31,201 nucleotides of DNA from Minisyncoccia bacterium (GCA_044356725.1 JBIKVS010000012.1:1-31201); one strand, 5' to 3'. Positions 6,783-31,201 are shown, numbered from the stretch's first letter. Notes: generated by a model from the sequence alone, not told the origin. Made by a program: numbers and translations.

Positions 6783-6806
6783 AAAATAAACAACAAACAA
6801 ACTCTT

Positions 6807-6853: not shown

Positions 6854-6904
6854 AATTCTAGACAGTATGTCGGCTGTCATTAGTAAGCACTTAGAGGTTT
6901 CTAA

Positions 6905-7907: not shown

Positions 7908-7973
7908 ATAAGTAAGGAGGGTACCCTCCAGACAGATGTACGTCACATATTAGTAATATTAAGTTATACATAT

Positions 7974-8405
7974 ATGAGGATTCGCAATCTACCAACATTA
8001 AACACTTTTGAACTAAGCCCAAGTAGGCTATTTGATGAAATATTCGAAACATCTTTCCCAAGTATGACAAGGTCACTCAGTGATATGGAAATGTATCAAG
8101 AAGGTTCTGAACTAGTGGTAAAACTACAAGCTCCTGGATTCAAGGAAGATGATATAGAAATTACTTTAGATAATCGGGTTCTCACCATAGAAGGTAAAGT
8201 ATCCGAGGAAGAGGAGAAAGAAGACAAGAATCGTCACTATTACTTCAAGTCAACTTCCAAAGAATCCTTTAGTAGATCAGTCCAATTACCAGGGGATATA
8301 GATGAGGATTCTGTCATAGCTGATTATAAAGACGGAGTAATAACTCTAAGAATACAGCAAAAGTCAGATTCTACCAAGAAAGTCATTAGCCTCAATAAAG
8401 GGTAA
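7974..8405 (+). CDS. Hsp20/alpha-crystallin small heat-shock protein
   Basis: PGFKEDDIEI, LTIEG, FSRSVQLP and ADYKDGVITL motifs. Confidence 0.95.
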   Translation: MRIRNLPTLNTFELSPSRLFDEIFETSFPSMTRSLSDMEMYQEGSELVVKLQAPGFKEDDIEITLDNRVLTIEGKVSEEEEKEDKNRHYYFKSTSKESFSRSVQLPGDIDEDSVIADYKDGVITLRIQQKSDSTKKVISLNKG

Positions 8406-8426
8406 TTTTAGACTAAAAGGAAAAGT

Positions 8427-8452
8427 AAAAGAGGGATTATGTCCCTCTTTTT
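8427..8452. terminator. Bidirectional intrinsic terminator
   Basis: AAAAGAGGGA-ttatg-TCCCTCTTTTT between convergent genes. Confidence 0.8.
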
Positions 8453-8457
8453 AGGTT

Positions 8458-8498
8458 GTCCACCCTCGTCTTTCAGACATTCTCCTTCAAAGGAGGAT
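8458..8498 (-). repeat. Degenerate REP-like element
   Basis: Reverse complement TCCTCCTTTGAAGGAGAATGTCTGAAAGACGAGGGTGGAC has the same two-hairpin layout as 3001-3063. Confidence 0.55.
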
Positions 8499-8536
8499 AA
8501 AAAAGCAGACTATCTGTATTAAAAACATATCAATTT

Positions 8537-16258: not shown

Positions 16259-17179
16259 TTGTATCACTATTATATCTTATTCCCCATAGGAAGAGGAGCC
16301 CATATAGTAGACCAGCTCATCACACAAGGACATCAAGTCATAATCATAGATAACCTAGTCACAGGACAACAAGACCTTATCAACCCAGCCGCAATTTTTT
16401 ATCAAGAAGACATCACCAATGCACAAAAAGTAGAAGAAATAGTCCAAAAACACCAAATCCAAATCATCTGCCATCAAGCCGCCCAATTAGATGTCAGAAA
16501 GTCAGTCCAAGACCCTCAATACGATGCCAATGTCAACATCATCGGTACCATCAATCTATTCGAAGCCGCCCGCAAACACGGAGTCACCAAAGTAGTCTTC
16601 GCCTCCTCAGCAGGAACAGTATATGGAGACAAAGAAACTCTACCAGTAAACGAAAGTGCCGACACCAAACCAGAGTGCCCTTATGGTATTTCTAAACTAA
16701 CAATGGAAAAGTATGCATATTTCTATCACAAACAATATGGAATTTCTTATGTTGCTTTGAGATACTCTAATGTATACGGACCAAGACAAAACTCTCATGG
16801 AGAAGCAGGAGTAGTTGGTATTTTTACAAACAAAATGTTAGCAGGAGAAGATTGTTTTATAAATGGAGATGGATTGATAACCAGAGACTTTATTTATATC
16901 GATGATGTAGTGAAGGCTTGTATTATTGCAATAAATAACGAAATTATTGGAGAGTATAATATTTCCAGAGGAGAGCAAACAGATATTAATACTATAGCTA
17001 AATTATTAAAAGAGTTTTCTCAATATTCAAAAGATATTCAGTATCGCGAAAAAAAACCAGGAGAACAACTTTTTGGAGAATACAGTTCTAAATTATTTCA
17101 ACAAAAAACCAATTGGAAGCCTATAGTTGGTATCCAACAAGGTCTACTTCAAACCGTAGAATATTTTAAGAATAAGTAA
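16259..17179 (+). pseudogene. NAD-dependent nucleotide-sugar epimerase (GalE-like), 5'-truncated
   Basis: HQAAQ, ASSAGTVYG, YGISK, LRYSNVYGPRQ and TRDFIYIDD are intact, but the N-terminal TGGAGFIG is replaced by FPIGRG and there is no ATG start. Confidence 0.65.
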
Positions 17180-17238
17180 TAATATTCACAACAACTTAAC
17201 TTTATGATAAACTAGACATAAGGTTAAAATATTAATTC

Positions 17239-18075
17239 ATGCATTCACCAATAGTATCGGTTCTAATGCCAGCATATAATTCAGAAAAATATATAGCAGA
17301 TGCAATAGATAGCATATTAAATCAGACATTTCAAGATTTTGAATTAATAGTAATAGATGACTGTTCCAAAGATAAAACATGGCATATAATCCAAAAATAT
17401 GCCCAAAAAGACAAAAGAGTAGTGGCAATCAAAAACACTAAAAATCTAGGAATAAGCGATAATCGTAATAAAGCCATCAGCATATCCAAAGGAAAATATC
17501 TAGCACCACTAGATAATGATGATTGGTCATATCCAGATAGGTTTGCAAAACAAGTAGAATTTTTAGACAATAATCCAGATATAGGTATTGTCGGCGGATC
17601 AGTAGAAGTATATAATGAAACTTTTACAAAACTATTATATAAAAACACCTTTTATCCAGATGACAAATCACTCAAAAAACATATATTCAGACAATTACCA
17701 TTCTCACACTCCAGTGTAATGTACAGAAGAGAAATTGGACTAGAAAATCCATATAGTAATAAATTATGCACCGCAGAAGACTATGACTTTTATTTTAGAG
17801 CAGGTATAAAACATAAATTTGCTAACCTAAAAGATGTATTAATCAAATACCGTACAAGCAAAACTCAAGAATCTACTACCAAAAATAGACGGCAAAGCTA
17901 TCTAGCAATGTATATACGTCTCAAAGCTACCGTAGAATATGGGTATAAATTATTTAAAAAAGATATAGCTTTAATAGTATTAAAATTAATACTAATCCCA
18001 ACCTTCCCCAAAAGATTTAGAGACCAGCTATTCAATATGTTTTGGAAAGGTCCAAATATACAAAATAAAGAATAA
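17239..18075 (+). CDS. Glycosyltransferase family 2
   Basis: VSVLMPAYN, IDDCSKD, LDNDD and EDYDF motifs. Confidence 0.95.
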   Translation: MHSPIVSVLMPAYNSEKYIADAIDSILNQTFQDFELIVIDDCSKDKTWHIIQKYAQKDKRVVAIKNTKNLGISDNRNKAISISKGKYLAPLDNDDWSYPDRFAKQVEFLDNNPDIGIVGGSVEVYNETFTKLLYKNTFYPDDKSLKKHIFRQLPFSHSSVMYRREIGLENPYSNKLCTAEDYDFYFRAGIKHKFANLKDVLIKYRTSKTQESTTKNRRQSYLAMYIRLKATVEYGYKLFKKDIALIVLKLILIPTFPKRFRDQLFNMFWKGPNIQNKE

Positions 18076-18082
18076 GATAATA

Positions 18083-19276
18083 ATGAAAATAGTTCATATT
18101 TCTATATATCCAGATAAAGGTAAGAAACATGTAGAAGCAGGTGGTGTAACTTCTTATACTAAAAATTTAGTCAATAATATAAATTATAAAAAAGACGATC
18201 AGGTTTATGTTTTATGTAATAAAATAAATAATAAATGTGATTCATACATAGAAGAAAACATCAATGTCATTAGATGTTTTGATAAAAATCCAAAGTTTAT
18301 CTATCAACTATATAAAGAGATTAATAAAATTAAACCAGATGTAATACATATACAACAAGAACTCTCACTATATGGAAATATAATAACAGCATATTTATTA
18401 CAGTGGCTAATAGTTCTTTTACATACATATACTACAATTATAACTTTACATGGAGTTGTAAGTATAAGTAAAATAAATAAAAAATTTATATTAGAAAACA
18501 ATACCAATGCTCCAGTATGGTTAGTCAAATTAGCTTTTTATGTAATATACAGACCACTATGTATTTTTTCGAAAGGAATTATAGTACATGAACAAGTATT
18601 CAAAGATAGATTAATTAAAGAATATAAAATTAATGAAAATAAAATACAAGTTCTACCTCATGGAATTGAAGACTTCACAGCAATAGACCAACAAAAATCA
18701 CAACAACATTTATACTTACCAACCAATAAAAATATATCACTATTTATGGGATATCTAACAGGATATAAAGGTCTAGACCTTCTTATAGAAGGATTTGCAG
18801 AATATATTAAAAAAGATAAAAAAGCCTATTTAATAATAGGAGCTGGAAAACATCCAAAACTTAAAAATGACCCAATATATCTAAAAGAGTATAAAAGAAT
18901 TCAAGATAAGGCACAAAATTTATTGGGAGATAAGTATCAATGGGTAGGATTTATAGAAGAAAAGGATATAAAATACTACTATAGTGCCGCAGATGTATCA
19001 ATCTATCCATATACTAATCAACTATCTAGCTCAGGTCCAATGTCAATCGCAATAGGATTCGAAAAGCCATTCCTAGCAAGTGAAGTATTTGATAGCTTTA
19101 TAGAAAATAAAGAAATTTTATTTAATAAAACCCCCAACAGCCTAAAAGATACTCTGGCTAAATTTTTTGACAATAAAGAAAATTTTGTGAAAGATGTGAA
19201 AATATTGAAAAAAGAAAGATTATGGAGTACTATAGGAGATAAGACTTATGATTATTATAAAAGTTTTGCTGTATGA
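18083..19276 (+). CDS. Glycosyltransferase family 4
   Basis: PDVIHIQ, PHG, GYLTGYKGLDLL and ADVSIYPY..SSGP motifs. Confidence 0.9.
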   Translation: MKIVHISIYPDKGKKHVEAGGVTSYTKNLVNNINYKKDDQVYVLCNKINNKCDSYIEENINVIRCFDKNPKFIYQLYKEINKIKPDVIHIQQELSLYGNIITAYLLQWLIVLLHTYTTIITLHGVVSISKINKKFILENNTNAPVWLVKLAFYVIYRPLCIFSKGIIVHEQVFKDRLIKEYKINENKIQVLPHGIEDFTAIDQQKSQQHLYLPTNKNISLFMGYLTGYKGLDLLIEGFAEYIKKDKKAYLIIGAGKHPKLKNDPIYLKEYKRIQDKAQNLLGDKYQWVGFIEEKDIKYYYSAADVSIYPYTNQLSSSGPMSIAIGFEKPFLASEVFDSFIENKEILFNKTPNSLKDTLAKFFDNKENFVKDVKILKKERLWSTIGDKTYDYYKSFAV

Positions 19277-20181
19277 AGGTGAATTTAATAGATTCGGGTA
19301 TTGTCGGGCAAGTACAGAAAATTTACCTATATGTTTTTTATAATACCAATTTTATATTAAACATAGTTGCTCTAACATCTTTATCTACCCCTCTTTTCTT
19401 AACAATATTTTTACAAAAAGAACTTTTTTTAGTTTTTAACTCCACTATGTATCTCTTTATTATAACTACATTTTTATATAATATTGTATATATAAGTAAT
19501 GATTTATTCGATTATAGAAAAGACAAAGAAAATAAGACCTATAAGTTTAGCGTATTTTCTAAGATGGATTTAAATCCATTTTTATATTCCATACTGTATA
19601 TTGGATTTCTTTGGTCTATAATTTATATATATTCCAATATATTTATAGGTTCTATTAATATCCTTATACTTTATAGTAGTTTGCTTTTTTTTATATCAAT
19701 TATTCATTCTAAAATTAAAAAGTTAAAAATAATAACTTTATTTATAGAGCGTTTTCTAAGATTGGTTATCCCATTTTATATACTATCTTTGTTTATTGAA
19801 AATATTTATATAGATGAATATTTTAAATTTGTATTAATATTTTTTCCGTTAATTATAGATTCATCATATAGAAGATATATAAAAAGTAAATTAAATATAT
19901 CTGAAAAAAATAGATTTTTTATTTACTTATTTTATTTTTTGATATTAATGATATTGAATCAATCAAATTTATTTCTAAGAATAGATTTAATGTTTAAATA
20001 TTTAGCTTTTTTATGTTCTTTTCAATTTTTTATTTATATAAGTTCTAATTCTTTTAAATTTAAATTTCTAACAAATATGTACAATAAAGATATTGATGAA
20101 AAAAATAGATTTTTAATTGAATTTATAATCCTGGTACCTATTATTATTTATCTATATTACAATGCAAATTTTAGACTTTGA
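19273..20181 (+). CDS. UbiA-superfamily membrane transferase, probably polyprenyl-phosphate phosphoribosyltransferase
   Basis: YISNDLFDYRKDKENK (NDxxDxxxD) in a multi-TM protein next to HAD and prs genes. Confidence 0.65.
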   Translation: MKVNLIDSGIVGQVQKIYLYVFYNTNFILNIVALTSLSTPLFLTIFLQKELFLVFNSTMYLFIITTFLYNIVYISNDLFDYRKDKENKTYKFSVFSKMDLNPFLYSILYIGFLWSIIYIYSNIFIGSINILILYSSLLFFISIIHSKIKKLKIITLFIERFLRLVIPFYILSLFIENIYIDEYFKFVLIFFPLIIDSSYRRYIKSKLNISEKNRFFIYLFYFLILMILNQSNLFLRIDLMFKYLAFLCSFQFFIYISSNSFKFKFLTNMYNKDIDEKNRFLIEFIILVPIIIYLYYNANFRL

Positions 20182-20749
20182 TGGGACTATAATACTTGAA
20201 AACTCTTCCCGAATGTTAGAATTAGAAACAATGAAAAAACTTCCTAATTCATTACAAAATTTGATATACCCAATATTTTTTGGAAAGATGAAAGTTTTTT
20301 TTAACAAGGTATGGGGCTTTATATCAATAGTATTTTTTAGCAATAGGGACTTTAGACTATTCATTTTCTTAGTTATCACTAGGAAGTATTTTTTAAATTC
20401 TAAAATAGATATTTATAAAACCGTATCTGAAAAGATAACATTTCGTCCAGATATATTAAAGACCATAAATAATGACACCATAATATTATCAAATGGAATA
20501 TCCGATCTGATAAAATATATTCTTCATAGTCATGGAATTAGCGTGAAGGTCATCGCTTCTAATATTGATAAATTTAAAATATCATCATTAAATAACTTTT
20601 CTTATAAATTTTCAGTTTTGAATTCATTTAAAAATTTTTACTATATAACGGATGATATATTAGAGGCAAAGTATATTTGTAAAAGATATAAATGGAAGAT
20701 TAGGTTTACACAAAAAGATAGTTTATACTACATTAATAAATTCCATTAA
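20162..20749 (+). CDS. HAD-superfamily phosphatase
   Basis: Motif I DFDGT, motif II ILSNG, motif IV YITDD; overlaps the UbiA gene by 20 nt. Confidence 0.75.
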   Translation: MQILDFDGTIILENSSRMLELETMKKLPNSLQNLIYPIFFGKMKVFFNKVWGFISIVFFSNRDFRLFIFLVITRKYFLNSKIDIYKTVSEKITFRPDILKTINNDTIILSNGISDLIKYILHSHGISVKVIASNIDKFKISSLNNFSYKFSVLNSFKNFYYITDDILEAKYICKRYKWKIRFTQKDSLYYINKFH

Positions 20750-20758
20750 TTTTTTAAT

Positions 20759-21667
20759 ATGAAAATATTCTCAAGTATCAAAAGTAGAGATCTAGCAGAG
20801 AAAATTATATATGAATTGAATACAAAGTACGCACATAATATTCATTTAGGAAAACTTAATATTAATAAATTTTCTGATGGTGAAATACTTCCTAAAATAG
20901 ATGATGATATAAAAAACAGTGATGTATTTTTCATAAATACTCTAGATACGGCTGATTCAATATTAGAAACAATTTTAGTAGTAGACGCAGCAAAAAGACT
21001 TGGATGTAAAAAATTTATATTAGTGGCGCCTTATCTTTCTTATTCAAGGCAAGATAAGGTTGATCATGTAGGATCCTCGTTAGGGGCACAATCTTTAGCA
21101 AGAACCTTAGAAAATTCTGGGATAAATATTCTTATAACTATTGATTTGCATTCAAGTAAGGTAAAAGAATTTTATCAAATTCCAGTTATAGAAATTGATG
21201 GAAAAGAGATATTTAAAGAGTTTTTTGTAGATAGTATAGAAAATAATACTTGTTTAATATCTCCAGATCAGGGAGGTGTATCTAAGATGAAATCGTTTTT
21301 AAAAGATTTTCCATATATCCATACTGCTGTAATGAGTAAAAAAAGGGTTAGACCCAATGAGGTAAAATCACTAAGTCTAAAAGGACAAGTTAGAGGTAAA
21401 GATGTGATTATATTAGATGATATAGCTGATACTTTAGGCACTATTGTAAAGGCATCACAACTTTTACTTAATAAAGGAGCCAATTCAGTCAAAGCTGTAG
21501 CTACGCATGGAGTTTTAAGCGGAAGCGCCTTTATAAACTTAGAAAAATCATCTTTAACGGAACTAGTTGTTTCAGATACATTAAACAATATCAATAACCC
21601 TAAGTTAAAAGTTATATCTTCATATAAAGCAATATCAAAACATATTCATTTATTAGTTAATAAGTGA
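20759..21667 (+). CDS. prs: Ribose-phosphate pyrophosphokinase (PRPP synthetase)
   Basis: FSDGE, PYLSYSRQDK, DLHS, SPDQGG, DDIADTLGT, ATHGV and SDT motifs. Confidence 0.95.
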   Translation: MKIFSSIKSRDLAEKIIYELNTKYAHNIHLGKLNINKFSDGEILPKIDDDIKNSDVFFINTLDTADSILETILVVDAAKRLGCKKFILVAPYLSYSRQDKVDHVGSSLGAQSLARTLENSGINILITIDLHSSKVKEFYQIPVIEIDGKEIFKEFFVDSIENNTCLISPDQGGVSKMKSFLKDFPYIHTAVMSKKRVRPNEVKSLSLKGQVRGKDVIILDDIADTLGTIVKASQLLLNKGANSVKAVATHGVLSGSAFINLEKSSLTELVVSDTLNNINNPKLKVISSYKAISKHIHLLVNK

Positions 21668-21699
21668 TATAATACATAATATTGTTATTATTTTATATT

Positions 21700-22278
21700 A
21701 TGAAAAAGATTCAATCAAAAAAATTAGATATTGGCTGTGGTAAATATAAGCAAGATGGAGCTATAGGTATTGACCATTCTGACTTACCAGAAATAGATAT
21801 TAAACATGATCTTAATATTTTTCCTTGGCCATTAAAAGAATCATCTTTTTCGGAAATACACTGTTATCATGTACTTGAGCACGTGCAAGATGTTGTAAAG
21901 TTTATGCAAGAGATATATCGTGTTTCAGAAGATGGTGCAAAAGTTTACATAAAAGTACCTCATGCATCTTGCTCCAAGTCTTTATGGACTGACCCAACTC
22001 ATTATAGAGGTTTTACGTCAAGAAGTTTTCTAGATTACTTTTCTAAGGAATCTTATTTTTCCTATTATGCTAATACAAATTTTATTGTTGAATCTCAAAA
22101 ATTAAACTATTGTTTATATGATGGTAAACGTGATACTAAGATCCCAAGATGGTGGCAAAACATTTGGAATAAATTAGGAAACATTAACTTTACTACGCAG
22201 GAAATATTTGAAAGAATATTGGCTAATTATATAGGTGGATTTGAAGAATTAGATGTAATTTTAGTTGTAAAAAAATAG
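21700..22278 (+). CDS. Class I SAM-dependent methyltransferase (ORF track starts at 21682)
   Basis: LDIGCG, HVLEHV, EIYRV and DPTH motifs, typical of glycan-cluster methyltransferases. Confidence 0.88.
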   Translation: MKKIQSKKLDIGCGKYKQDGAIGIDHSDLPEIDIKHDLNIFPWPLKESSFSEIHCYHVLEHVQDVVKFMQEIYRVSEDGAKVYIKVPHASCSKSLWTDPTHYRGFTSRSFLDYFSKESYFSYYANTNFIVESQKLNYCLYDGKRDTKIPRWWQNIWNKLGNINFTTQEIFERILANYIGGFEELDVILVVKK

Positions 22279-22285
22279 GCTCTAT

Positions 22286-24541
22286 ATGTATAAAAAGTTA
22301 ATGCACTTATTTATATTTATAATATTTGGAATATTCTTTTACATATTTTTTCAGGGTAAAGATTTAGTATTTGGTGACTTTGCTACCACATTCTCACATA
22401 ATAAACTTAAACTGGTGGGTACATTAGTATGGTCATGGTTAGACAACTCCTTTTTGGGGTATGAGACAATATTTTATGTGTTTCTTAGGATCCCATTTTA
22501 TATTATTTCGGATTTAATAAATTTCTTTTTCGGCTCAGATGCATATTGGTTGCTTTTTGTTGTAATTTATTTTTTAAGATATATATTTTTATTTATTTTA
22601 TTAAGGAGTCTAAAAGTATCGTTTTTTACATCAATAGTAATTTCCTTTATCTATTCAATAAATTTTTATTTTATTGATAGATTAGGTCATACGTTGATTT
22701 CTTTTGGTTCAATTACTATTCCTACTCTTATTTTATCTTATAGTAACTTGGTAAAGAATGGAATTTCTTTTAAGTGGCTTAGTGTATTTATGTTTTCTAT
22801 CTGGATTATAATGTCATCAATGCACGTTACCTTAATGACATTATATTTCGGAGTTTTGATGTTTATAGGGTATGCGATATGGTCAATAAATAACAAACAA
22901 ATACAAAAATTTATTTTTTTGCATATCAAATTGATTTCAGTTTTATTATTAATTTTTTCATATATAATTATACCAATATTTTATTCTACATTTTTTGTTA
23001 ACGAAACTACAGTCGTTCAGCAGGTATCTTCTCAGGCTAGTGACTGGATATTTAATCTGAGTAGATATACCAGCTTATTTAATACTTTATCTGGTGTCGG
23101 TTACCTATACTCTGAAATATTAAATAATAAGCTTATAGTTTGGATTGGGTTTTTTAGTACTATTAGTACAATGGTTTATGTAATATTGATTCCTAAAAAT
23201 AAAGTTAATATTGAATATTATATTTACTTTATTACATTTCTATTATTTTTATTCTTATCCTCAATAAGTTTATTAAAACCAGCAATACCTTTATTAAAAG
23301 ATAATTTAATCGGATTCAACTCCATTAAAGATAATTCTTATTTTATATTGTATGTTCAACTTTCATTTTGGATATTAGTCGCTATATCTATTGAGAGTAT
23401 TTCAAAAAGGAAGCTCTTTATTTGGTTGTCTCGTATACAAATATCAGTAATAGCTATATTATTTTTTATAGTAAATATTTATTCATTTAGTACATTTAAT
23501 TATTTTAAAACAGCTCAAATTCCGGAGGAGTACTATAGTATTGAACAAAAATTAGATAAAAATGGTCGAGTTTTAGTTTTACCATTGGGGTGGGTAAGTA
23601 AATTTGAATGGTCTAATGGTATTATGTCTGGATTTTTCAATTTATTTTTAGCTAATTATCAAATAGTGGGTCAAAATATTATAGAAGGACCAAGTTTGAG
23701 CACTCAAGAAAAAATTAATAAGTTTAATAGTTGTTTTGAAGAAATATGTCCAGATATCAAGATGTATTTAAAAGAATTAGGAGTGTCCCAAATCATTAAC
23801 TTTTCTGGAGCATATGATGTCTCTAAAAGTTTAGATTCAACTAGTTATATTTCATATGACAAAACGATCAAGAACTTATTAGATAATAATATTATTGAAA
23901 ATAAATTTTCTAATGACAAATATCAAATTTATCAAGTAATTGATGAATCAATTATTACAACAAAAATTTTTAGCGATAATATTAACTTTAATAAAATAAA
24001 TCCAACAAAATATAAAGTTAATATTTCTAATGTTAAATCGAATCAAGAAATTAGTTTTCTGGATTCTTTCCATAGCCAATGGAAGCTCTACCTGAACCCA
24101 ATCAATTCTAATACTAAAGATTGTAATGTAATTCAAGAATATAATAATGAAGGTAAAAATATCAAAGAGTGTGAACATACTCAAAAATTCTTTGAAGGGG
24201 AGGAGTTAAGGTGTCTTTGGAGACAACCTCTTTTTGAAGATTCTCATAAACTAGTCTATGACTATGCTAATCAATGGATTATAGATCCTGACTATATCAA
24301 ATCTAATTTTGATAAGTCTATGTACAAAGAGAATCCAGATGGAAGTATAGATATAGAGCTTACTTTGTACTTCAAACCTCAATCATATTTTTACCTAGGT
24401 ATTATCATATCTGGCACTACTCTTATCTTATGTCTTAGCTACCTTGGCTATACTTTTTACCGCCAGCGACGACAACATAAGAGCCATAATAAGATAAATA
24501 TTCATTCTGTAGAAAAAGATAAAAATATGGTGTCAAATTAA
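22286..24541 (+). CDS. GT-C fold membrane glycosyltransferase (AftD/YfhO-like)
   Basis: Early GD loop, IYSINFY, about 12 TM segments, IPEEY..RVLVLP, KINPTKYKV, SFHSQWKL, YANQW and YFKPQSYFYLG final TM. Confidence 0.72.
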   Translation: MYKKLMHLFIFIIFGIFFYIFFQGKDLVFGDFATTFSHNKLKLVGTLVWSWLDNSFLGYETIFYVFLRIPFYIISDLINFFFGSDAYWLLFVVIYFLRYIFLFILLRSLKVSFFTSIVISFIYSINFYFIDRLGHTLISFGSITIPTLILSYSNLVKNGISFKWLSVFMFSIWIIMSSMHVTLMTLYFGVLMFIGYAIWSINNKQIQKFIFLHIKLISVLLLIFSYIIIPIFYSTFFVNETTVVQQVSSQASDWIFNLSRYTSLFNTLSGVGYLYSEILNNKLIVWIGFFSTISTMVYVILIPKNKVNIEYYIYFITFLLFLFLSSISLLKPAIPLLKDNLIGFNSIKDNSYFILYVQLSFWILVAISIESISKRKLFIWLSRIQISVIAILFFIVNIYSFSTFNYFKTAQIPEEYYSIEQKLDKNGRVLVLPLGWVSKFEWSNGIMSGFFNLFLANYQIVGQNIIEGPSLSTQEKINKFNSCFEEICPDIKMYLKELGVSQIINFSGAYDVSKSLDSTSYISYDKTIKNLLDNNIIENKFSNDKYQIYQVIDESIITTKIFSDNINFNKINPTKYKVNISNVKSNQEISFLDSFHSQWKLYLNPINSNTKDCNVIQEYNNEGKNIKECEHTQKFFEGEELRCLWRQPLFEDSHKLVYDYANQWIIDPDYIKSNFDKSMYKENPDGSIDIELTLYFKPQSYFYLGIIISGTTLILCLSYLGYTFYRQRRQHKSHNKINIHSVEKDKNMVSN
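24290..24469 (+). repeat. GT-C 3'-end repeat, copy 1 (core 24436-24462)
   Basis: 180 bp matching 26920-27099 with 13 differences by hand count; core TAGCTACCTTGGCTATACTTTTTACCG. Confidence 0.92.
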
Positions 24542-24547
24542 AATATT

Positions 24548-26155
24548 ATGAAAAATATTTTCAATGAATTTAAAAGGCAGATTTTCTCTCATTTGAATAT
24601 TATTTTAAGTGTATTGTTATTAGGTATTATATTGTGGTTGTTTATAGATTTTGAAAATTTGTATCATTATCAACAAGAGTTACAGGATATACAGATCGCT
24701 CTATTGACACTTATGATTCCATTAGCTATGGAATTATATAAGTTTAGCGACACTAATTCTGATAATAAAGAAAGTTTTCCAAATAAATTTATAAAAAGTA
24801 AAAACTTAATTAAAGAAGAGCTTATTAAGAACAAGTTCCCTATTGGTATAATATTATTGATAATTTTTATATCTACAATTTTGAGTATTTTGGGGATTAG
24901 TAATTATTTAATTTTTTACACTTCATTAATTGCAAATTTAATTTTAGCATATTTTATACTTGATATATTTAATATTCTGAATAATCCTAATTCTAGAGAA
25001 GAGTTTTATAAAAAAATTTTAGAGGGCTATAATAATGAAAATCTAGATAGAACTATAGATCTATGGGAGAGTCATTGGAGTAATAAAACAGAAATTAATT
25101 TGCCTTATGATTCAACTATAGAAATCTTTATTAGAAGATTAGAGAATAAAAGAACAAAAAAGGAGAATGAAGAAATCTGGAGATTATTAGGAGTTTTTTA
25201 TAAATATATTGATAATAGGAAAATTATTCCTAAAATTATAATTGTTAAACTATTTGAATATATTTATATATTTCTGAAAGAATCTGAAGAATCTGCCGAG
25301 CATAATGGAAGTCCCAGTAAATACATTGAAGCACATGAGATATATAGGATTTCTGAAGAAATTCTAATTAAAATTTTACAAAAATCTTTACAGGATCCTC
25401 ATCCTAGTTCTGCTACCATAGATTTTTTTGAAGCATTAGATCAGCATTTACAAAAATATAAAGATGAAACTATTCAATTTCATGGTAAGGAAAAATCATA
25501 TTTTGAATTTTTCAAATATTTTGGGGATAGGGTAATTACAGAAATATTAAATTCAAAGGACGTGTTTGTAGCAAGAGATGTTTTAGATTATCATTGGAGT
25601 AAGTCTGATAGAAATTGGAAGATTAATTTATCTAATTTAGAATCAGAAAAAGATAATAAGATTACTTATTATTGGCTCAATAGAATGTTAGAATATTTAT
25701 ATAAGACTTGGAAAGAACAGATTTTTTATACTTCAACAAAAAAATTAAAATCTAAAGATATACAGAAAATCAATATTTTACTAAATTCTTTTATGCACAA
25801 CATAGATGTCATATTATTTATGAGAGTAGTAGAATTAGTGTGGTTTAAAAGAGTCGTAAATGAGAGTGTTAAAAACTATTTAGAGAAACGAGTTTTTTGG
25901 TTTTTGGATAATGTGGAAATGTATATTGACAATAGTAGTCCAGAAGAAAATCTAGAGTATGAAAAAATTATTATTGAAAAACAACAACGGGAGACTGTAT
26001 TATTATTAAAAAAGATTTATAAATTGAATGATAATTTTTATAAAGATATAAAGAGCCAAATTGAAGCTATTGATCGTAATTCATTAGATGATGAGCAAAA
26101 AGGAAGATTAGAAAGTTTACAAAAGACCATAGATTATTTTATAAATAATAAATAA
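24548..26155 (+). CDS. Hypothetical protein with four N-terminal TM helices and a large helical soluble domain
   Basis: 535-aa ORF; no motif recognised. Confidence 0.75.
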   Translation: MKNIFNEFKRQIFSHLNIILSVLLLGIILWLFIDFENLYHYQQELQDIQIALLTLMIPLAMELYKFSDTNSDNKESFPNKFIKSKNLIKEELIKNKFPIGIILLIIFISTILSILGISNYLIFYTSLIANLILAYFILDIFNILNNPNSREEFYKKILEGYNNENLDRTIDLWESHWSNKTEINLPYDSTIEIFIRRLENKRTKKENEEIWRLLGVFYKYIDNRKIIPKIIIVKLFEYIYIFLKESEESAEHNGSPSKYIEAHEIYRISEEILIKILQKSLQDPHPSSATIDFFEALDQHLQKYKDETIQFHGKEKSYFEFFKYFGDRVITEILNSKDVFVARDVLDYHWSKSDRNWKINLSNLESEKDNKITYYWLNRMLEYLYKTWKEQIFYTSTKKLKSKDIQKINILLNSFMHNIDVILFMRVVELVWFKRVVNESVKNYLEKRVFWFLDNVEMYIDNSSPEENLEYEKIIIEKQQRETVLLLKKIYKLNDNFYKDIKSQIEAIDRNSLDDEQKGRLESLQKTIDYFINNK

Positions 26156-26161
26156 TTTTAA

Positions 26162-26247
26162 TAGCTACCTTGGCTATACTTTTTACCGTCAGCGAAAACA
26201 GGGGAGTCGCTCTAAGATAGATAGTGGTTTTGTGGGGGAGTAGGGGG
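26162..26247 (+). repeat. GT-C 3'-end repeat, copy 2
   Basis: Identical 27-bp core; reads SYLGYTFYRQRKQGSRSKIDSGFVGE-stop in frame. Confidence 0.92.
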
Positions 26248-26250
26248 AAA

Positions 26251-26346
26251 ATACAGGCGACTGAAAGGTCGCCCCTACAAAAAACAGTGTCGGCTAGGGT
26301 GCCGACACTACGAAATGTAGGGATAAAAGCCCTCAAGAGGGGAATT
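26251..26346 (-). repeat. Cluster of GTAG-type REP palindromes
   Basis: Minus strand GTAGGGGCGACCTTTCAGTCGCC (26278-26256) and GTAGTGTCGGCACCCTAGCCGACAC (26311-26287). Confidence 0.75.
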
Positions 26347-26382
26347 AATATGTTATAATATAAATATATTAATTGCAACAAA

Positions 26383-26781
26383 ATGCAAAAGTTTATAAAG
26401 AGATTTCAGGAGTGGTTTATATTAAAACCTAAATTAGACAATAATAATTATTATCCTCCTAAATTTTCACAGAAGCAAGTTTGGTTTTATTATTGTGGAG
26501 AGAATATAGGAGGTGAAATTAGTGGTAAAGGAAATGAATTTTTGAGACCTTTTTTGATTTTTAAAAAATTGGATAGATATAGCTTTATAGGATTACCTCT
26601 TAGTACTAAGTATAAAGAAGGTAATAGGTATCTCAAAATTTATTTTAAGGAAAAGTTACAAACTGTATATTTACATCAACCAAGACATTTAGATTATAGA
26701 AGATTAAAGTATAAATTAGGTGAAATTACAGATAAAGAATTTATAGAAATTAGTTCAAACTTCATTAATCTTTATAAGTAA
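26383..26781 (+). CDS. PemK/MazF-family endoribonuclease toxin with no adjacent antitoxin ORF
   Basis: VWF...GENIGGEISGK...RPFLIFKK, GLPLST, Q.R.LD.RRL..KLG. Confidence 0.85.
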   Translation: MQKFIKRFQEWFILKPKLDNNNYYPPKFSQKQVWFYYCGENIGGEISGKGNEFLRPFLIFKKLDRYSFIGLPLSTKYKEGNRYLKIYFKEKLQTVYLHQPRHLDYRRLKYKLGEITDKEFIEISSNFINLYK

Positions 26782-26865
26782 AAAACCCCGACTTTATAAA
26801 GTTAGGGCTTTTTACATTTTATAACCCCTCTATATTGCAAGAGGGTCGCGGCTATTGCCGAATAC
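26780..26865 (-). ncRNA. Candidate small structured RNA convergent with the toxin gene
   Basis: Minus-strand promoter upstream, two hairpins, and a terminator with a U-tract at the toxin stop codon. Confidence 0.5.
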
Positions 26866-26871
26866 ATAACA

Positions 26872-26900
26872 ATAATAACTCTATATTATAATTTTGTCAA
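26872..26900 (-). promoter_or_regulatory. Antisense-oriented sigma70 promoter
   Basis: TTGACA (26900-26895)-17 nt-TATTAT (26877-26872). Confidence 0.6.
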
Positions 26901-26919
26901 TAGTTTTGACTTATCTAAA

Positions 26920-27147
26920 GACTACATCGAAGCTAATTTTGATAAGTCTATGTACAAGGAGAATCCAGATGGAAGTATAGATCTAGAGCTTACTTTGTAC
27001 TTCAAACCTCAATCATATTTTTATCTTGGTATTATCATCTCGGGAACTACTCTTATCTTATGCATTAGCTACCTTGGCTATACTTTTTACCGCAAGCGAA
27101 AACAGGGGAGTCGCTCTAAGATAGGTAGTGATTCTGTGGGGGAGTAA
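26920..27147 (+). pseudogene. Orphan 3' fragment of a GT-C paralog/allele (repeat copy 3, core 27066-27092)
   Basis: Encodes DYIEANFDKSMYKENPDGSIDLELTLYFKPQSYFYLG...SVGE-stop, matching the end of 22286-24541. Confidence 0.88.
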
Positions 27148-27348
27148 GGGGGGATTTGTCCTCCTTACTTCGTCGCAAAAGTCCTCCCTCCCCCGTCGCA
27201 AATGGGATTTGCTCCTTGAAAACCCACGGTTTCCAACACTCAGTCTTTGACCTCGTTGCCTTCCTCCACGGGAAAAGTACCTTTTTCCCGACCCCTTTCC
27301 CAAAGTCTAAAGCCTTTTTACGGGTACTCCCTCCAAAGGGAGACAGAA
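27066..27348 (+). repeat. ~283-bp direct repeat, copy A
   Basis: Near-identical to 28808-29088; GC-rich with multiple hairpins. Confidence 0.93.
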
Positions 27349-27367
27349 GGGTAAGGACAAAAGGACA

Positions 27368-27553
27368 ATCCACCCCCGCCTTGCAGGCTCCCCCTCCGAA
27401 GGGGGACAGAAGTTCAAGTAGAAAAATACATCCACCCCGTCAGGCGAAGCCTGCCACCCCTCAATTTATCTCCCGTAGGGAGAGAGGGGAATTTTAGCCC
27501 CCAAAAATGTCCCTCGCTGGCGAGGGGGGACCCGCTTGGCGGTGGGTGTGGAC
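27368..27553. repeat. Three REP-like two-hairpin elements (27368-27408, 27428-27506, 27508-27553)
   Basis: TCCACCCCG...CCCCTC...GGGG layout; the middle element recurs at 29191-29250. Confidence 0.75.
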
Positions 27554-27876
27554 TATATCGATTTGATTGCTATTAAATCATCTAGTGTCTTTGACGTGGA
27601 AACATTTTTACTTGCTGTTTTCTTACTATTAGCTACTATATCAAACATTGTCTTTACATTTTGTGAGCGATTGCTAAATTTTATTTTTGGAAATTTTCTT
27701 TGTAATAGTATAAATTCATGAGCTGATGAACGGGCTATAAAATCTACATGATCAAAATCAAGTATAATTGTAGGGAATAGCATAGATAATATTCTAATAC
27801 GAAAAGACAAACTCTTGACTTCATTACGAAGCATCAGTGAGTTATTAAATCTTTTAGCTATTCTAATCTTATTCAT
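27553..27876 (-). CDS. STAS-like (DUF4325-type) protein
   Basis: IILDFDHVDFIARSSAHEF...N....VKTMF; lies downstream of the HATPase gene. Confidence 0.7.
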   Translation of the reverse strand: MNKIRIAKRFNNSLMLRNEVKSLSFRIRILSMLFPTIILDFDHVDFIARSSAHEFILLQRKFPKIKFSNRSQNVKTMFDIVANSKKTASKNVSTSKTLDDLIAIKSI

Positions 27877-27929
27877 AGTGTAGTGTTGTTTAATTACATT
27901 TTAGCATATAGTATTGATAATAACAATAT

Positions 27930-28766
27930 TTATTTTATATAAGTATATAAACTTTCTTTGGAAATTTTATCTATTGGTATTCTCATTGCTACTAGTACTC
28001 CCTGCCAAGAAAAACTATATTCTTCAAGATTAAAGGTATCAAATTTTTGTGGGGTTCCAAAAGCGAATAAATTTCCAGATAATAATGCATAAGATCCCTT
28101 TAGTCCTTCTTGAATAAATTTCTTACTATCTCTAATACCAGTACCTCTTTCATAATTATCTTTGGTTGAATAATGTTGTTCAAATAATAGGTCAACTGTT
28201 TCATCAAATGATATGTCTTTGCCTATAAAGTTACTATAAGATTTTTGGATACCAATACCTGTATCTGCGATAGTTATATCTATAAAGTTAGATTTAGGAT
28301 AAATTTGAGCTAGTATATATCCAAACTCGGATTGGCTATGTTGTGCTATATTATCTATAGCTTCTCCTATTAAATATGATATATTGGTTTCGACGGAATT
28401 ACTTTTATTATCTATAAATTTTATTAATAAAGCTCTGTATTCACTCACAAGTGATGAGTTCTGAGTTGAAAATTTTATTATTGGTAAATATGTTTTGTCC
28501 TGTGAGGTGGATTTTATATTATTTTTATTAAACCCAATTGTATTGAGATAAGTTTTAACTTCAGGTCTGAGGTTGACTGGAGTTAAGTTATATTGTTGTA
28601 TATAAATACTCAATGGTAATATTAGTGGCGGGAAAATAAATGATATATTGCTAAAATCTAATTTGGAGGTATGATTATTTTGACATAAATCTCTAAGCTG
28701 TATCAGTGATACAAGTTGATGATTGAGAGAGTTTGATTTTGGTTTTGGGATTAATATTGTATTCAT
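27930..28766 (-). CDS. Histidine-kinase-like ATPase (HATPase_c) with N-terminal STAS-like region
   Basis: N box EAIDNIAQHS, G1 IADTGIGI, G2 STK...RGTGI; N-terminal LDFSNISFIFP. Confidence 0.8.
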   Translation of the reverse strand: MNTILIPKPKSNSLNHQLVSLIQLRDLCQNNHTSKLDFSNISFIFPPLILPLSIYIQQYNLTPVNLRPEVKTYLNTIGFNKNNIKSTSQDKTYLPIIKFSTQNSSLVSEYRALLIKFIDNKSNSVETNISYLIGEAIDNIAQHSQSEFGYILAQIYPKSNFIDITIADTGIGIQKSYSNFIGKDISFDETVDLLFEQHYSTKDNYERGTGIRDSKKFIQEGLKGSYALLSGNLFAFGTPQKFDTFNLEEYSFSWQGVLVAMRIPIDKISKESLYTYIK

Positions 28767-28807
28767 AATATAATTATTATAGCATAGGAAGTCGTAATTA
28801 TATATAT

Positions 28808-29088
28808 TAGCTACCTTGGCTATACTTTTTATCGCCGGCGAAAACAGGGGAATCGCTTTGAGATAGGTAAGGGCTTGTGGGGGAGTAGGGGGGATTTGTC
28901 CTCCTTACTCCGTCGCAAAAGTCCACCCTCCCCCGTCGCAAATGGGATTTGCTCCTTGAAAACCCACGGTTTCCAACACTCAGTCTTTGACCTCGTTGCC
29001 TTCCTCCACGGGAAAAGTACCTTTTTCCCGACCCCTTTCCCAAAGTCTAAAGCCTTTTTACGGGTAATCCCTCCAAAGGGAGACAGAA
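28808..29088 (+). repeat. ~281-bp direct repeat, copy B (GT-C 3'-end repeat copy 4)
   Basis: Core TAGCTACCTTGGCTATACTTTTTATCG (one synonymous change); the rest is near-identical to 27066-27348. Confidence 0.93.
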
Positions 29089-29103
29089 AGGCAATTTGCA
29101 AAA

Positions 29104-29250
29104 ATACAGGCGACTGAAAGGTCGCCCCTACGAAATGGAGGGATAAACCCTCCGCTACGAAATTCATAATTCATCATTTATAATTAAACTACATCCACCC
29201 CGTCAGGCGAAGCCTGCCACCCCTCAAGAGGTGAATTTTAGCCCCCAAAA
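29104..29250. repeat. Mosaic of GTAG REPs, heptamer run and two-hairpin REP
   Basis: ATACAGGCGACTGAAAGGTCGCCCCTAC is identical to 26251-26278; GGAGGGATAAACCCTCCGCTAC at 29137-29158; ACATCCACCCCGTCAGGCGAAGCCTGCCACCCCTCAA is identical to 27428-27464. Confidence 0.85.
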
Positions 29251-29419
29251 GTAGTGCAGAACTTTTGACTTTTTATTACCCCTATGTAAAATAGGGTCGT
29301 GGGACAATCCCAATGTATGTTTGAATTATATTACTTTTGATTTATTTGGTCAATATTGTATCATTGTGATTGGATAATTGTATCATTTACGATACAATTA
29401 TCGAGTATTATTGATTTAA

Positions 29420-29749
29420 TTATTTTTGACTCTCTTCTTTTATAAGTACGGCGGTTCCGCTGACGGCTACCATTAGCATTCCTGTACTTATCATTTCATA
29501 GTCTATGTCTACTCCTATGATGGCATTGGCTCCAAGTTTTTTGGCTTCTTGCTCCATTTCTTTGAGTGCTGATTCTTTGGCTTCTTTTAAGACTTCTTCG
29601 TAGGCTGAGGAGCGTCCTCCTATGAAGTCTCTGACTGAGGCTAGTATGTCTCGGAATACATTGGCTCCTAAGATGACTTCTCCACTGACTATTCCTTTGT
29701 ATTCGGTGATTTCTGTGCCTGAGATTAGGGTTGTGGTTGTGATTAACAT
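29420..29749 (-). CDS. ybjQ: YbjQ/UPF0145 family protein
   Basis: GIVSGEVILGANVFRD, GGRSSAYE, GANAIIGVDIDY and VSGTAV motifs. Confidence 0.93.
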   Translation of the reverse strand: MLITTTTLISGTEITEYKGIVSGEVILGANVFRDILASVRDFIGGRSSAYEEVLKEAKESALKEMEQEAKKLGANAIIGVDIDYEMISTGMLMVAVSGTAVLIKEESQK

Positions 29750-29831
29750 AGCTAATAAGTTTAGTTGATATGTTTAGTTGATATGTTGTAATTATAGCAT
29801 ATTTTATTAGCTCTCGTCAGTGGTCTTATGA

Positions 29832-29842
29832 TGTGGTATAAT
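29832..29842 (+). promoter_or_regulatory. Extended -10 promoter
   Basis: TGTGGTATAAT 33 nt before ATG 29876. Confidence 0.6.
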
Positions 29843-29875
29843 GCTTTTATTGAATATTTATTATTTTGTAGGTTT

Positions 29876-31201
29876 ATGAAATCTAAGGTTTCTGGTTTAG
29901 ATTGGTTGAAGTTGGCAGTAGTTTGGTTTGTTTTCGGGGTGGCTTTTTCTTTTTGGGATAGTGTATCGGGGTCTTTTTTATGGGCTTATTTGGTTGGGGT
30001 TATATTATTTCGTATATCTAGTGAAAAAACTTTATATTTAGCTTTAGTTTTATTGATATTATCTCCAATCGCGTTGTCTCTGAAGTTGGATGTTTTAGCT
30101 GAAAGTTTAGTCGTTAATATGTATTTTCTCCTTTGTATTTTTATTGTCGGAGAGGTTTCAAGAGGTGTGGGTGTATCTTGGTCTTGGTTAGATTGTTTAG
30201 CTAATAAAATTATTGATAGAACAAGGGGTCTTATAGTGTCTACTCCAGATTGGGTATTTATTTGTATTTTTGTTATTCCTTCTCTTTTTTTAATCTCTAG
30301 ATCATATTTTTTTACTTCTAAGATCCCTTATAACAGTTTTTTGGATATGGGTTCACTTATTGTTCAAACTGATGTTATCAGACAATTTAATATAGGTTGG
30401 GCATATCAGTTTGGGAGGGCATGGAATATTCTGACTAGTAATTGGCCAGTTCTATATACTGAGTTTTTGGGATGGATAGCTAGAGATTTTTATTTAGGGA
30501 TAAAGATACATCAATTTTTGAGTATAGTGATTGGAGCATGGGGAGTAATAGTATTATGGAGGAGTTTAATGGTAAAGTTAGAAGATAGAATAGCAAGTAT
30601 ATCTTCTCAGGTTTTAGTAGCTTTGATATATGTATTTAATCCATTTTATCTTTCAGTATTGAATGGAGTAGTAGAGTTTGGAGTAGCATATAGTCTTATG
30701 CCATGGATAGTTTGGTCATGGTTGAGATTAATTAGGGATAAAGAAGGTAAGTGGTGGGAGTTAGGGTTACAAGTTATTGTGACTGGAGTATTGTTATCAT
30801 TTGCAACAGTGGTATCAGGAATTACATTAGTTTTTACAAATGCATTACCATTGTTTGTAATTATGTTTGGTATAGGGTTGATCAGTTTTGAATCTAAGAT
30901 AGAGTTATTGAGGCGTGGAATATTATTGAGTTTAGTATGGCTGATAGTGGCTTTGATGGGACTTCACGTTATTATCCCTACTTTCTTTGGGTATAGACAA
31001 GCTGATGGTATTTTGGACTCTACACAGACAGAGGAGAGAGAGTCTCCTTTCGTGAAAGATTTTTATTCTCCTACTTTAGAGGAGATTATGTATCTGCAAA
31101 ATAAAGAGGGAATTGTTTCAGAGGAGATTGGTTATAATTTTAGAGCCATCCCTTTAAAATATCGTTTGGTCTGGTTTTTCTGGTCTTCTTTAGGAATAAT
31201 A
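29876..31201 (+). CDS. Second GT-C-like multi-pass membrane protein, runs off the window (absent from the ORF track)
   Basis: Hand translation MKSKVSGLDWLKLAVVWF... includes ALIYVFNPFYLS and AYSLMPW, typical of AftD/YfhO-like membrane regions. Confidence 0.78.
   Translation, partial: MKSKVSGLDWLKLAVVWFVFGVAFSFWDSVSGSFLWAYLVGVILFRISSEKTLYLALVLLILSPIALSLKLDVLAESLVVNMYFLLCIFIVGEVSRGVGVSWSWLDCLANKIIDRTRGLIVSTPDWVFICIFVIPSLFLISRSYFFTSKIPYNSFLDMGSLIVQTDVIRQFNIGWAYQFGRAWNILTSNWPVLYTEFLGWIARDFYLGIKIHQFLSIVIGAWGVIVLWRSLMVKLEDRIASISSQVLVALIYVFNPFYLSVLNGVVEFGVAYSLMPWIVWSWLRLIRDKEGKWWELGLQVIVTGVLLSFATVVSGITLVFTNALPLFVIMFGIGLISFESKIELLRRGILLSLVWLIVALMGLHVIIPTFFGYRQADGILDSTQTEERESPFVKDFYSPTLEEIMYLQNKEGIVSEEIGYNFRAIPLKYRLVWFFWSSLGII

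Follow-up and report, generated by a model that had tools for sequence, protein, structure and literature searches.

Introduction

Several known systems come close to the locus described here. Integrons and clusters of attC sites lacking integron-integrases (CALINs) commonly carry toxin-antitoxin cassettes in their chromosomal arrays. In streptococci, integrative conjugative elements (ICEs) as well as cis-mobilizable elements accrete at the 3′ end of fda, forming tandem elements bounded by copies of the gene end, and some of these use an integrase in trans. For rhs genes it was described that an intact gene is followed by its own fragments, which vary in length and keep the same conserved end, with differing tips and intervening genes, and the model put forward in that account has the old tip moved downstream through homologous recombination that involves circular intermediates (Jackson et al., 2009; PMC2935791). 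Furthermore, an additive genomic island was reported to be marked by the recurring last 20 bp of a tRNA gene, in an account that attributes additive islands generally to mobile elements (PMC10872708). Here, we analyze an array in a 31,201-nucleotide stretch of DNA from a Minisyncoccia bacterium (GCA_044356725.1 JBIKVS010000012.1:1-31201; this whole stretch is referred to as the window), in which the 3′ end of a gene for a predicted C-type glycosyltransferase (GT-C), the anchor gene, recurs in direct orientation with cargo genes between the copies.

Bacteria of the candidate phyla radiation (CPR) have tiny genomes with few recognizable mobile elements, and the gain and loss of their accessory genes is poorly understood. 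Nothing relevant on a comparable phenomenon in CPR bacteria was found in open-access papers and in bioRxiv. The array is real and conserved and its cassettes are mobile. The locus has no integrase of its own, yet its content changes from species to species and its cassettes are exchanged horizontally.

Four copies of a gene end in the window

The anchor gene (22286–24541, plus strand) encodes a protein of 751 amino acids (aa) and is the last gene of a glycan cluster (16259–24541). Within its conserved 3′ module (24290–24462), the last transmembrane helix, reading ...SYLGYTFYR, is the place of a 27-bp core (copy 1, 24436–24462). An earlier note on this DNA had claimed that this core occurs four times in direct orientation, and pattern matching in the window confirmed all four positions: the copies at 24436, 26162 and 27066 have no mismatch and that at 28808 is a T variant (26/27), all on the plus strand, and matches were found in 0 of 100 shuffled sequences. 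These four are the only copies in the 897-kb genome, which is a 20-contig metagenome bin of 99% completeness.

Copies 2 to 4 are alike over ~86 nt, i.e., the core and a tail of 60 nt, with 79–93% identity. The gene's own copy reaches only 60% identity to them across the same ~86 nt because its tail has diverged. Copy 2 (26162–26247) and copy 4 (28808–28893, with one C>T change) consist of the core and this tail, which we term form 1. Copy 3 (27066–27092) lies in a long fragment of the 3′ module, the E type (26881–27151, plus strand), which likewise ends in a form-1 tail and in which a further 146 nt of gene homology precede the core; the pair 24290–24474 and 26920–27104 is 92% identical.

The similarity of copies 2 and 4 to the gene had been said to begin almost exactly at an imperfect palindrome, TAGCTA-CCT-TGGCTA. 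Both copies do have TAGCTACC as their left end, but the palindrome is not conserved among the relatives and does not hold as the defining site. The core has two main variants, and half of the relatives carry GGGTAT-CTT-GGGTAT, which is a direct repeat encoding LGYLGY and not a palindrome; moreover, the fragment starts are not fixed at the core. For the core and tail of copies 2 to 4, no significant fold was found on either strand (z −1.1 to +0.9 versus shuffles).

The cargo differs from copy to copy. Cassette 1 (24463–26161, plus strand) comprises the diverged, AT-rich gene tail (to 24541) and an open reading frame (ORF) for a membrane protein of 535 aa (24548–26155), for which Pfam, NCBIfam and PADLOC gave no family match. 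It is a 1726-bp insertion relative to genome G004, in which the main gene joins directly to the sequence found 3′ of core 2 in the window. Behind copy 2 lies a MazF/PemK-like gene of 132 aa (26383–26781, plus strand; Pfam E 3e-4), and between copies 3 and 4 a minus-strand cassette (27553–28766) encodes a DUF4325/STAS-like protein (27553–27876) and an HATPase-like protein (27930–28766), with a weak match to the DrmA region in PADLOC. The Pfam scores of the PemK-like, DUF4325 and HATPase_c ORFs all fall under the curated cut-offs. The earlier note had named the 535-aa protein, MazF/PemK and HATPase+STAS as cargo, and this holds; the fourth item, a YbjQ family gene (29420–29749, minus strand; Pfam E 4e-39), is not cargo but a conserved distal flank, which closes the arrays also in G004, G011 and stretch L083 (Pfam-confirmed in G004 only). 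A second large membrane protein (29828–31201, plus strand), which runs off the window, is likewise a conserved distal flank.

Recurrence and cassette movement in relatives

Seventeen genomes of the family were searched for the core with up to 2 mismatches, and the reversed pattern, used as control, gave 0 matches everywhere. Core copies were found in G000 (4), G011 (10), G004 (6), G008 (4), G002 (3) and G009 (2), and the other 11 of the 17 had none. Within the genus, arrays of 2–10 cores are present behind the orthologous gene in 6 of 12 Paceibacteria genomes, and within each contig all cores have the same orientation and lie downstream of that gene. The cores of G011 are located on two contig ends, five on each, which are probably parts of one array; with at least 10 cores and at least 12 cargo genes it occupies as much as ~1.5% of a genome of 0.8 Mb.

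When metagenome contigs were scanned, 21 stretches were obtained, 15 of which passed the motif filter (L067, L068, L071, L072, L077 and L085 did not), and the gene tail or fragments of it were found in 13 of these 15. L066 and L073 were judged unrelated from their protein context alone, which has a reverse transcriptase-like look (no family search was made). Among nine stretches from genome collections, L060 and L064 belong to unrelated phyla and were taken as chance matches.

Two of the checks proposed in the earlier note, the search for the core across the own genome and relatives and the comparison of cargo behind orthologous GT-C genes, were carried out. Arrays are present in 6 of the 17 family genomes, and the relatives differ in number and order of the cargo and have the core in common, which bears out the idea of a site of accretion and turnover anchored on the 3′ end of the gene, with cassettes exchanged between species. 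The DUF3800 unit, for example, opens the array of G009, takes the third place in that of G011 and is the last one in G004, and a MazF unit common to G000 and G004 (92.6% over 996 nt) has different neighbors on both sides. The 535-aa cassette recurs with the same right junction in L080 (92%), L076 (74%) and G002/L061, where other tails follow the core.

Moreover, the MazF(−) unit of G008 and G009 is 97.4% identical over 613 nt, compared with 88.2% in the flanking gene (2386 nt) and 87.9% in the module, and the NYN unit of G011 and G008 is 95.8% identical, with 89.3% for the module. The cassettes being 96–97% identical while their flanks are 88–89% identical, it follows that cassettes move horizontally. 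The tracts of high similarity have one end at the core and the other a few bases before a small-RNA promoter (TTTTGAC directly followed by TTGACAAATGTAAAG), and the TTTTGAC motif at the tract end is common to different cassettes.

The layout in independent assemblies

The stretch is contained in 24 lake-water runs. Two of these, X3 and X4, are runs other than the possible source of the assembly. A contig of X3 spans core 1, the 535-aa ORF and core 2 without mismatch (24364–26277), and X4 covers the same span by two contigs (24364–24927 and 24978–26277, 0 mismatches). Core 3 is spanned with its flanks by contigs of both runs (26994–27215, 0 mismatches), core 4 with its flanks in X3 only (27441–28950), the contig of X4 stopping at 28729. 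Since contig breaks are confined to GC-rich dispersed repeats, the junctions are confirmed and the order of the blocks is not. Furthermore, comparable arrays sit within contigs of 82, 119 and 144 kb in three other species bins. Over the gene body (23500–24395) the contig depth is 0–4 in X3 and X4, compared with ~16 (X3) and 5–10 (X4) over 24396–26187. This may reflect another gene-body allele in those samples, and the contig hole as such proves nothing.

The anchor gene, its conserved 3′ module and the junction classes

The 751-aa protein has no match in Pfam or NCBIfam. Its AlphaFold2 model has a mean predicted local distance difference test score of 78.6, based on an alignment of ten sequences, and in a Foldseek search of the PDB the first 27 matches are all GT-C enzymes, 17 of them at E <= 0.001. 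The best match is AftD (6w98, E 6e-7), a mycobacterial arabinofuranosyltransferase, followed by DPY19, STT3/OST, ArnT and AftA. As judged from the model, the gene product has a predicted GT-C fold that is closest to AftD. Upstream, the cluster encodes an epimerase, a GT2 and a GT4 glycosyltransferase, a polytopic 302-aa protein, an HAD-like ORF, a phosphoribosyl pyrophosphate (PRPP) synthetase and a methyltransferase. The PRPP synthetase presumably fits a pathway of the polyprenyl-phospho-arabinose type, as we assume from the mycobacterial pathway.

The two parts of the gene, a hypervariable body and a conserved 3′ module of ~180–250 nt, differ in how they evolve. The last ~100 aa are 88–100% identical to five orthologues and 58–68% identical to the paralog-type genes of G010, G004 and G000, whereas the gene body shows mostly ~10–35% identity per 50-column window among congeners. 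A single-copy recombinase, used as yardstick, is 86–91% identical among the same genomes. The 3′ module thus changes as a core gene would, and the body behaves as a hypervariable part that is replaced. In this respect the gene behaves as a replacement-type glycan island with its border inside the gene.

Several allele classes of the gene body exist among the contigs, as seen on comparing window 22286–24541 with G004, G008, G009, G011, G015 and metagenome contigs. Another gene body can precede the same downstream sequence: homology to the window starts at ~24215 in L051 and at 24290 in L080, which has a different body, yet matches the window at 92% from there through the 535-aa ORF. The reverse is found in L065 and L084, which share the gene body (90–93%), match to 24469 and then continue with one core and other cargo. 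These breakpoints show that the module serves as a crossover zone, with the switch between body and downstream sequence at 24215–24469.

Two further arrangements were observed. In the metagenome contig L078 (oriented 3046–6899), the conserved 3′ module is an ORF of its own, of 105 aa, and is preceded by a membrane ORF of 631 aa and a 547-aa homologue of the 535-aa cargo, so that the module can stand behind another gene arrangement, or the gene is split there. In L049 (G015:C3, another genus; oriented 5300–8700), the slot that separates the GT-C gene from that of the second large membrane protein is occupied by PIN, AbiEii and AAA+DUF4143 genes and has no tail repeats, so that this slot is a hot spot for accessory genes even without repeats.

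When the last 100 aa were used as tblastn query, all tail fragments reached the core and none retained the 5′ part alone. Their left ends lie at about −190/−146, −85, −75, −20, −5, −4, 0 and +5 relative to the core, and every junction class goes with a single cargo type and is shared between species. The junction of copy 4, in which ...GTAATTATATATAT abuts TAGC, is found in the window, G004, G008, G009, G011 and L069, and that of copy 3 also in G004 (L047) and G008 (L046). The long fragment always follows a MazF(+)/small-RNA module and ends beside the small-RNA promoter; the short classes, D and F, resemble deletion products of this long form, with TTATCT as the microhomology. On the 3′ side of the core, four alternative tails of 17–25 aa are found. 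Form 1, of ~60 nt, is array-specific, and at least two of the other forms run directly into GC-rich modules that resemble repetitive extragenic palindromes (REPs).

Cargo and predicted small RNAs

Among the cargo families of the arrays are MazF/PemK-like proteins (many), NYN, DUF3800, KilA-N, Fic, zeta toxin and the pair of HATPase and STAS-like proteins; in addition, membrane proteins of 535–550 aa without recognized family are encoded. Toxin- or defence-like genes make up the larger part of the cargo. In PADLOC, the KilA-N cargo corresponds to the candidate PDC-S22 (E 1e-133), and the Fic cargo is SoFic/PDC-S04-like. The MazF-like protein of the window scores 21.4 bits against PF02452 (cut-off 23.1), and 7 of 8 copies of relatives are above this cut-off. 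An ORF listing revealed no ORF for a protein antitoxin beside the MazF-like gene of the window.

A predicted small RNA gene (26815–26900, minus strand) is convergent with the MazF-like gene, with a promoter TTGACA-17-TATTAT at 26900–26872, a small hairpin at 26860–26849 and a terminator hairpin at 26845–26826. A second copy without an adjacent toxin gene is found at 29268–29353 (minus strand; promoter TTGACC-17-TATAAT at 29353–29325). These two minus-strand promoters (26900–26872 and 29353–29325) are the best promoter-like sites of the region, matching 11 of 12 consensus positions. In general, a TTGACA-17-TATAAT-type promoter precedes the predicted RNA of ~50 nt, which in the window would cover 26815–26866 and 29268–29318 on the minus strand. 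It consists of a hairpin of 4–5 bp, three linker nucleotides and a second, GC-closed hairpin that varies in sequence, is the predicted terminator and in most copies is followed by a U-rich tail. Nineteen MazF-like genes were examined, among them the copy on contig C20 outside the array; they are not independent and represent about nine distinct variants. In all 19, a convergent promoter with a predicted two-hairpin RNA is located no more than 260 nt from the 3′ end of the gene.

The stem of the small hairpin covaries (GGC/GCC, GGGA/UCCC, GCC/GGC and CUAC/GUAG). Alignment of 12 two-hairpin copies with MAFFT and RNAalifold yielded the small hairpin alone, in which 2 of 3 pairs show compensatory changes, the length of the first stem being too variable, and folding of single sequences gave both hairpins in 12 of 12 copies. 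A loose pattern applied to the 12 congeners gave 11 hairpin-complementary matches, all on array-bearing contigs and one of them after the second membrane-protein gene; this pattern missed more divergent copies such as the one on C20. The zeta cassettes carry the same two-hairpin element, and the DUF3800 and NYN cassettes examined have convergent promoter-driven predicted RNAs of their own. The DUF3800 RNA has a TTGACA-17-TATAAT promoter, a long hairpin CCCUAAGUG...CACUUAGGG and a U-run (oriented positions L047 1540–1650, L048 5400–5490 and L045 9940–10030). Taken from sequence, the MazF-like gene and its convergent small RNA form a candidate RNA-controlled toxin module.

A second accessory island was observed at C20:40.9–52 kb, with a 1339-aa ORF, two ORFs of 272–283 aa with antirepressor-like N-terminus and a MazF-like gene, its predicted small RNA lying at C20:41510–41620 (minus strand). 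The local repeats at C20:40.9–51.9 kb were considered as a gene-tail array and rejected, as they are shared promoter/REP regions of reverse-strand genes.

REP-like modules and other features of the window

The GC-rich stretches that follow copies 2 to 4 are members of a repeat family that is dispersed over the genome (71 matches) and has 45–56% GC in a genome of ~25% GC. Many of these modules are units of GTAG and a hairpin, which here read as minus-strand terminators. They are found at 26248–26340 (minus strand; terminator-like sites at 26274–26255 and 26311–26284), as a cluster of 53–56% GC at 27147–27545 and as a second cluster at 28887–29250. With terminators, a toxin-like gene, a small RNA gene or the cargo's own promoter and a core, the cassettes are compact units, and the REP-like terminator modules set them apart from one another. 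On contig C5 (L055:1450–2010, minus strand), a 186-aa ORF with HxH and YDH motifs resembles IS200 and REP-associated tyrosine transposases (RAYTs), with 20.3 bits compared with a cut-off of 23 for PF01797. The repeats and this RAYT-like ORF look like a REP/RAYT system in a CPR bacterium.

A search of Rfam with 24000–30000 (E <= 1) gave nothing at the core or the two-hairpin element, and two sub-threshold matches within the GC-rich repeats, one suhB-like (33 bits versus 41) and one to whalefall-1 (21.7 versus 37). An island anchored on a tRNA gene was rejected, as the sole tRNA of the window is at 2128. Far upstream of the array, the window encodes a heliorhodopsin (566–1393, minus strand; Pfam E 9e-96).

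Recombinases and the mechanism of accretion

The earlier note held that no recombinase is encoded in the window, and this was borne out by a Pfam scan of 31 ORFs (20 ORFs of >=110 aa from 1–20 kb and 11 selected ORFs from 19–31 kb), which gave no recombinase family. Likewise, 0 of 12 array-bearing loci with ORFs listed has a recombinase-like ORF, part of these ORFs having been run through Pfam. Three families, PF00589, PF00239 and PF01797, were searched genome-wide. A single PF00589 gene exists in the genome, on another contig and with Xer architecture, and no resolvase/serine recombinase (PF00239) was found. The Xer-type gene occurs once in all 11 congeners and in one family member of another genus, and in all 21 genomes overall (some rows of this search show two pieces of one ORF), and it is 86–91% identical among congeners with or without an array. 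A scripted search of the genome for a dif-like site gave weak, unconvincing matches and no usable sequence for a comparison with the core. The genome encodes RecA and ComEC.

The earlier note had left two mechanisms side by side, homology-anchored uptake and site-specific recombination in trans. The evidence leans to the first, and we give about an even chance to the reading that the array is an additive genomic island built by homology-driven 3′-end displacement, as proposed for rhs genes. This reading is suggested because the fragments are variable in length but anchored at the 3′ end, junction classes are shared between species, with the same unit at different array positions, cassettes are more alike than their flanks, the module is a crossover zone, no recombinase ORF was seen in the arrays with ORFs listed, the genome has a housekeeping-type Xer gene as its single PF00589 member and no resolvase was found in it, the core lacks conserved symmetry and a significant fold, and both RecA and ComEC are encoded. 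Rare illegitimate joins would form each junction between a cargo and a position in the module. RecA-dependent recombination at the repeated core or module, together with the short shared motif or the REP modules on the other side of the cassettes, would then insert, delete, reorder and swap cassettes, both within a genome and between species after uptake of DNA. As to enzymology and intermediates, we infer circles, inserted in the manner of Campbell, or linear DNA with two homologous arms. Each insertion would provide a new gene tail and shift the older tail with its cargo downstream (C-terminal displacement), and toxin modules, being addictive, may favor their own retention. Repeats, 3′ anchoring, junction classes, mosaic breakpoints, the differing order and content of the arrays and the excess similarity of cassettes over flanks were observed directly.

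Several observations weigh against homology-driven displacement. Five of the ~9 junction classes lie within 10 nt of the left edge of the core (−5, −4, 0, 0 and +5), as a preferred site predicts. Two of these five (F type) resemble microhomology deletions within the long form. Cassettes whose homology is restricted to the core of 23–27 bp carry non-homologous tails behind it (window versus L076/L061; L048 versus L069), which means that the exchange used very short identity. Identity of 23–27 bp is near the lower limit for RecA-dependent recombination. Moreover, the 82 nt of core and tail are conserved in 16 non-coding copies, with a majority fraction of 0.95 for the core and 0.90 for the form-1 tail, which is the level of a coding gene and points to constraint or frequent conversion. 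Among the contigs of X3, X4, X5 and X7, neither deletions from core to core nor junctions of circles were found, and the joints listed all lie in GC-rich repeats; as contigs drop rare variants, this result does not bear on the existence of circles or deletions. Finally, the core polymorphisms are mosaic but at synonymous sites and do not locate crossovers.

Site-specific recombination in trans would explain some of these points. The core, maybe together with the motif at the far end, would be the attachment site for an enzyme encoded elsewhere, possibly the single Xer-type recombinase, the HUH protein that resembles RAYTs, or an enzyme supplied by a phage or by another cell, and the cassettes would be integrase-less as in integrons and cis-mobilizable accretion. 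The identity of the core at 27/27 positions in three copies and 26/27 in the fourth agrees with this, as do the highly similar cassette tracts that end at the core and the cassette that occurs with non-homologous sequence behind the core. The starts of two unrelated junctions, that of the 535-aa cassette and that of the MazF(−)/HATPase class, are no more than 1 nt apart, at the boundary between TAGC and TACC, and those of three more lie within 5 nt. Additive islands with the recurring last 20 bp of a tRNA gene are published as well (PMC10872708). However, no array with ORFs listed encodes a recombinase, the lone tyrosine recombinase is of the housekeeping type and also present in array-free congeners, and no serine recombinase was found. 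In addition, no dyad symmetry of the core is conserved across both variants and it has no significant fold, the fragment starts are not fixed, and the dif-like search yielded nothing that could be compared with the core. We consider recombination in trans unlikely. That, more specifically, the core and the TTTTGAC/small-RNA-promoter motif form a true site for a trans-acting enzyme (Xer-type or RAYT-like), making the array an integron-like cassette system of CPR bacteria, is a rather unlikely proposition.

Alternatively, the arrays might have evolved mostly in situ. One or a few old tandem duplications, which started within the module and extended past the first toxin module, would have been followed by unequal crossing-over, microhomology deletions and REP turnover with little horizontal input, so that the arrays would be decaying paralogous repeats. 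The constant position of the long fragment after the MazF(+)/small-RNA module and the likeness of the D and F classes to its TTATCT deletions are in line with such a history; so are the many MazF-like paralogs in the arrays, at 40–70% identity, and the apparent age of the 535-aa junction, the copies of this cassette being only 74% identical. It does not account for cassettes of 96–97% identity between flanks of 88–89% in different species, for the unrelated cargo families NYN, DUF3800, KilA-N, Fic, zeta and HATPase, or for the close relative that has the same gene body (90–93% at the DNA level) with one core and other cargo, and we regard evolution mostly in situ as improbable. Almost certainly wrong is the idea that the assembler chained alternative downstream sequences of coexisting strains at the shared core: a 20-contig metagenome bin, arrays that break contigs in G004 and G011 and a gene-body contig depth far below that of the array in X3 and X4 could be taken as signs of it, but contigs of independent runs bridge every core with both flanks and 0 mismatches, arrays are embedded in contigs as long as 82, 119 and 144 kb that belong to three other species bins, and the exact repeat is merely 27 bp long.

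Implications

The locus links a hypervariable surface-glycan gene, a trait that probably faces phages, with stacked genes of toxin- and defence-like kinds. Should homology be enough by itself, a conserved gene end can become a landing pad by a simple and general route. If a trans-acting enzyme is involved, this would be a new cassette system that captures and shuffles toxin and small-RNA modules at the end of a surface-glycan gene. Of greatest interest are a possible role of the core beyond that of a homologous patch and a possible function of the convergent small RNAs as antitoxins to MazF-like and other toxins.

Comparison with described systems

The array shares with integrons and CALINs the single-gene cassettes of ~1–1.7 kb separated by a recurring site. 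In contrast to these, it has no IntI, no attI and no structured attC, its cargo lies on both strands, and strong promoter-like sites are present inside the cassettes. The array is not an integron: the analogy drawn in the earlier note does not extend to membership, given the missing IntI, the lack of a significant fold of the repeat and the cargo on both strands with its own promoters. The elements that accrete at fda differ from the present ones in being many kb long, derived from ICEs and served by a known integrase, whereas the units described here comprise one or two genes and the genome encodes no such integrase.

The predicted toxin modules resemble type I toxin-antitoxin loci in that the 3′ end of the toxin gene faces a strong promoter for a short structured RNA ending in a terminator. 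They differ in their toxins, which are MazF/PemK-like proteins of 132–145 aa and a zeta-like protein of 273 aa and not small membrane peptides.

As in the stacking of integrative elements at a gene end, which comprises additive islands, accretion of cis-mobilizable elements and tycheposons, direct repeats of the 3′ end of the target gene bound each unit; a cognate integrase was not found in the elements or, for PF00589, PF00239 and PF01797, in the genome. The resemblance to the additive island, as far as it is characterized in PMC10872708, lies in a fixed site that grows by cassettes leaving copies of the target-gene end, beside a replacement-type glycan island, in a streamlined freshwater bacterium. 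The target here is protein-coding, the repeats range from 17 nt to ~250 nt and do not have a fixed att length, and no integrase is located in or beside the island.

The remaining comparison is that with the C-terminal displacement of rhs, and also of CdiA and MafB. The anchor here is a GT-C glycosyltransferase gene and not a toxin gene, and the host is a CPR bacterium of 0.9 Mb. The fragments are not fused to functional tips: the displaced tip is a tail of ~17–25 aa without evident function, and the cargo consists of separate ORFs. Moreover, the conserved part is the 3′ end, and the gene body is hypervariable. What the locus has in common with these systems, as described in the published account of rhs, is, besides the mechanism proposed for both, the arrangement itself, an intact gene followed by fragments of it that vary in length and keep the same end.

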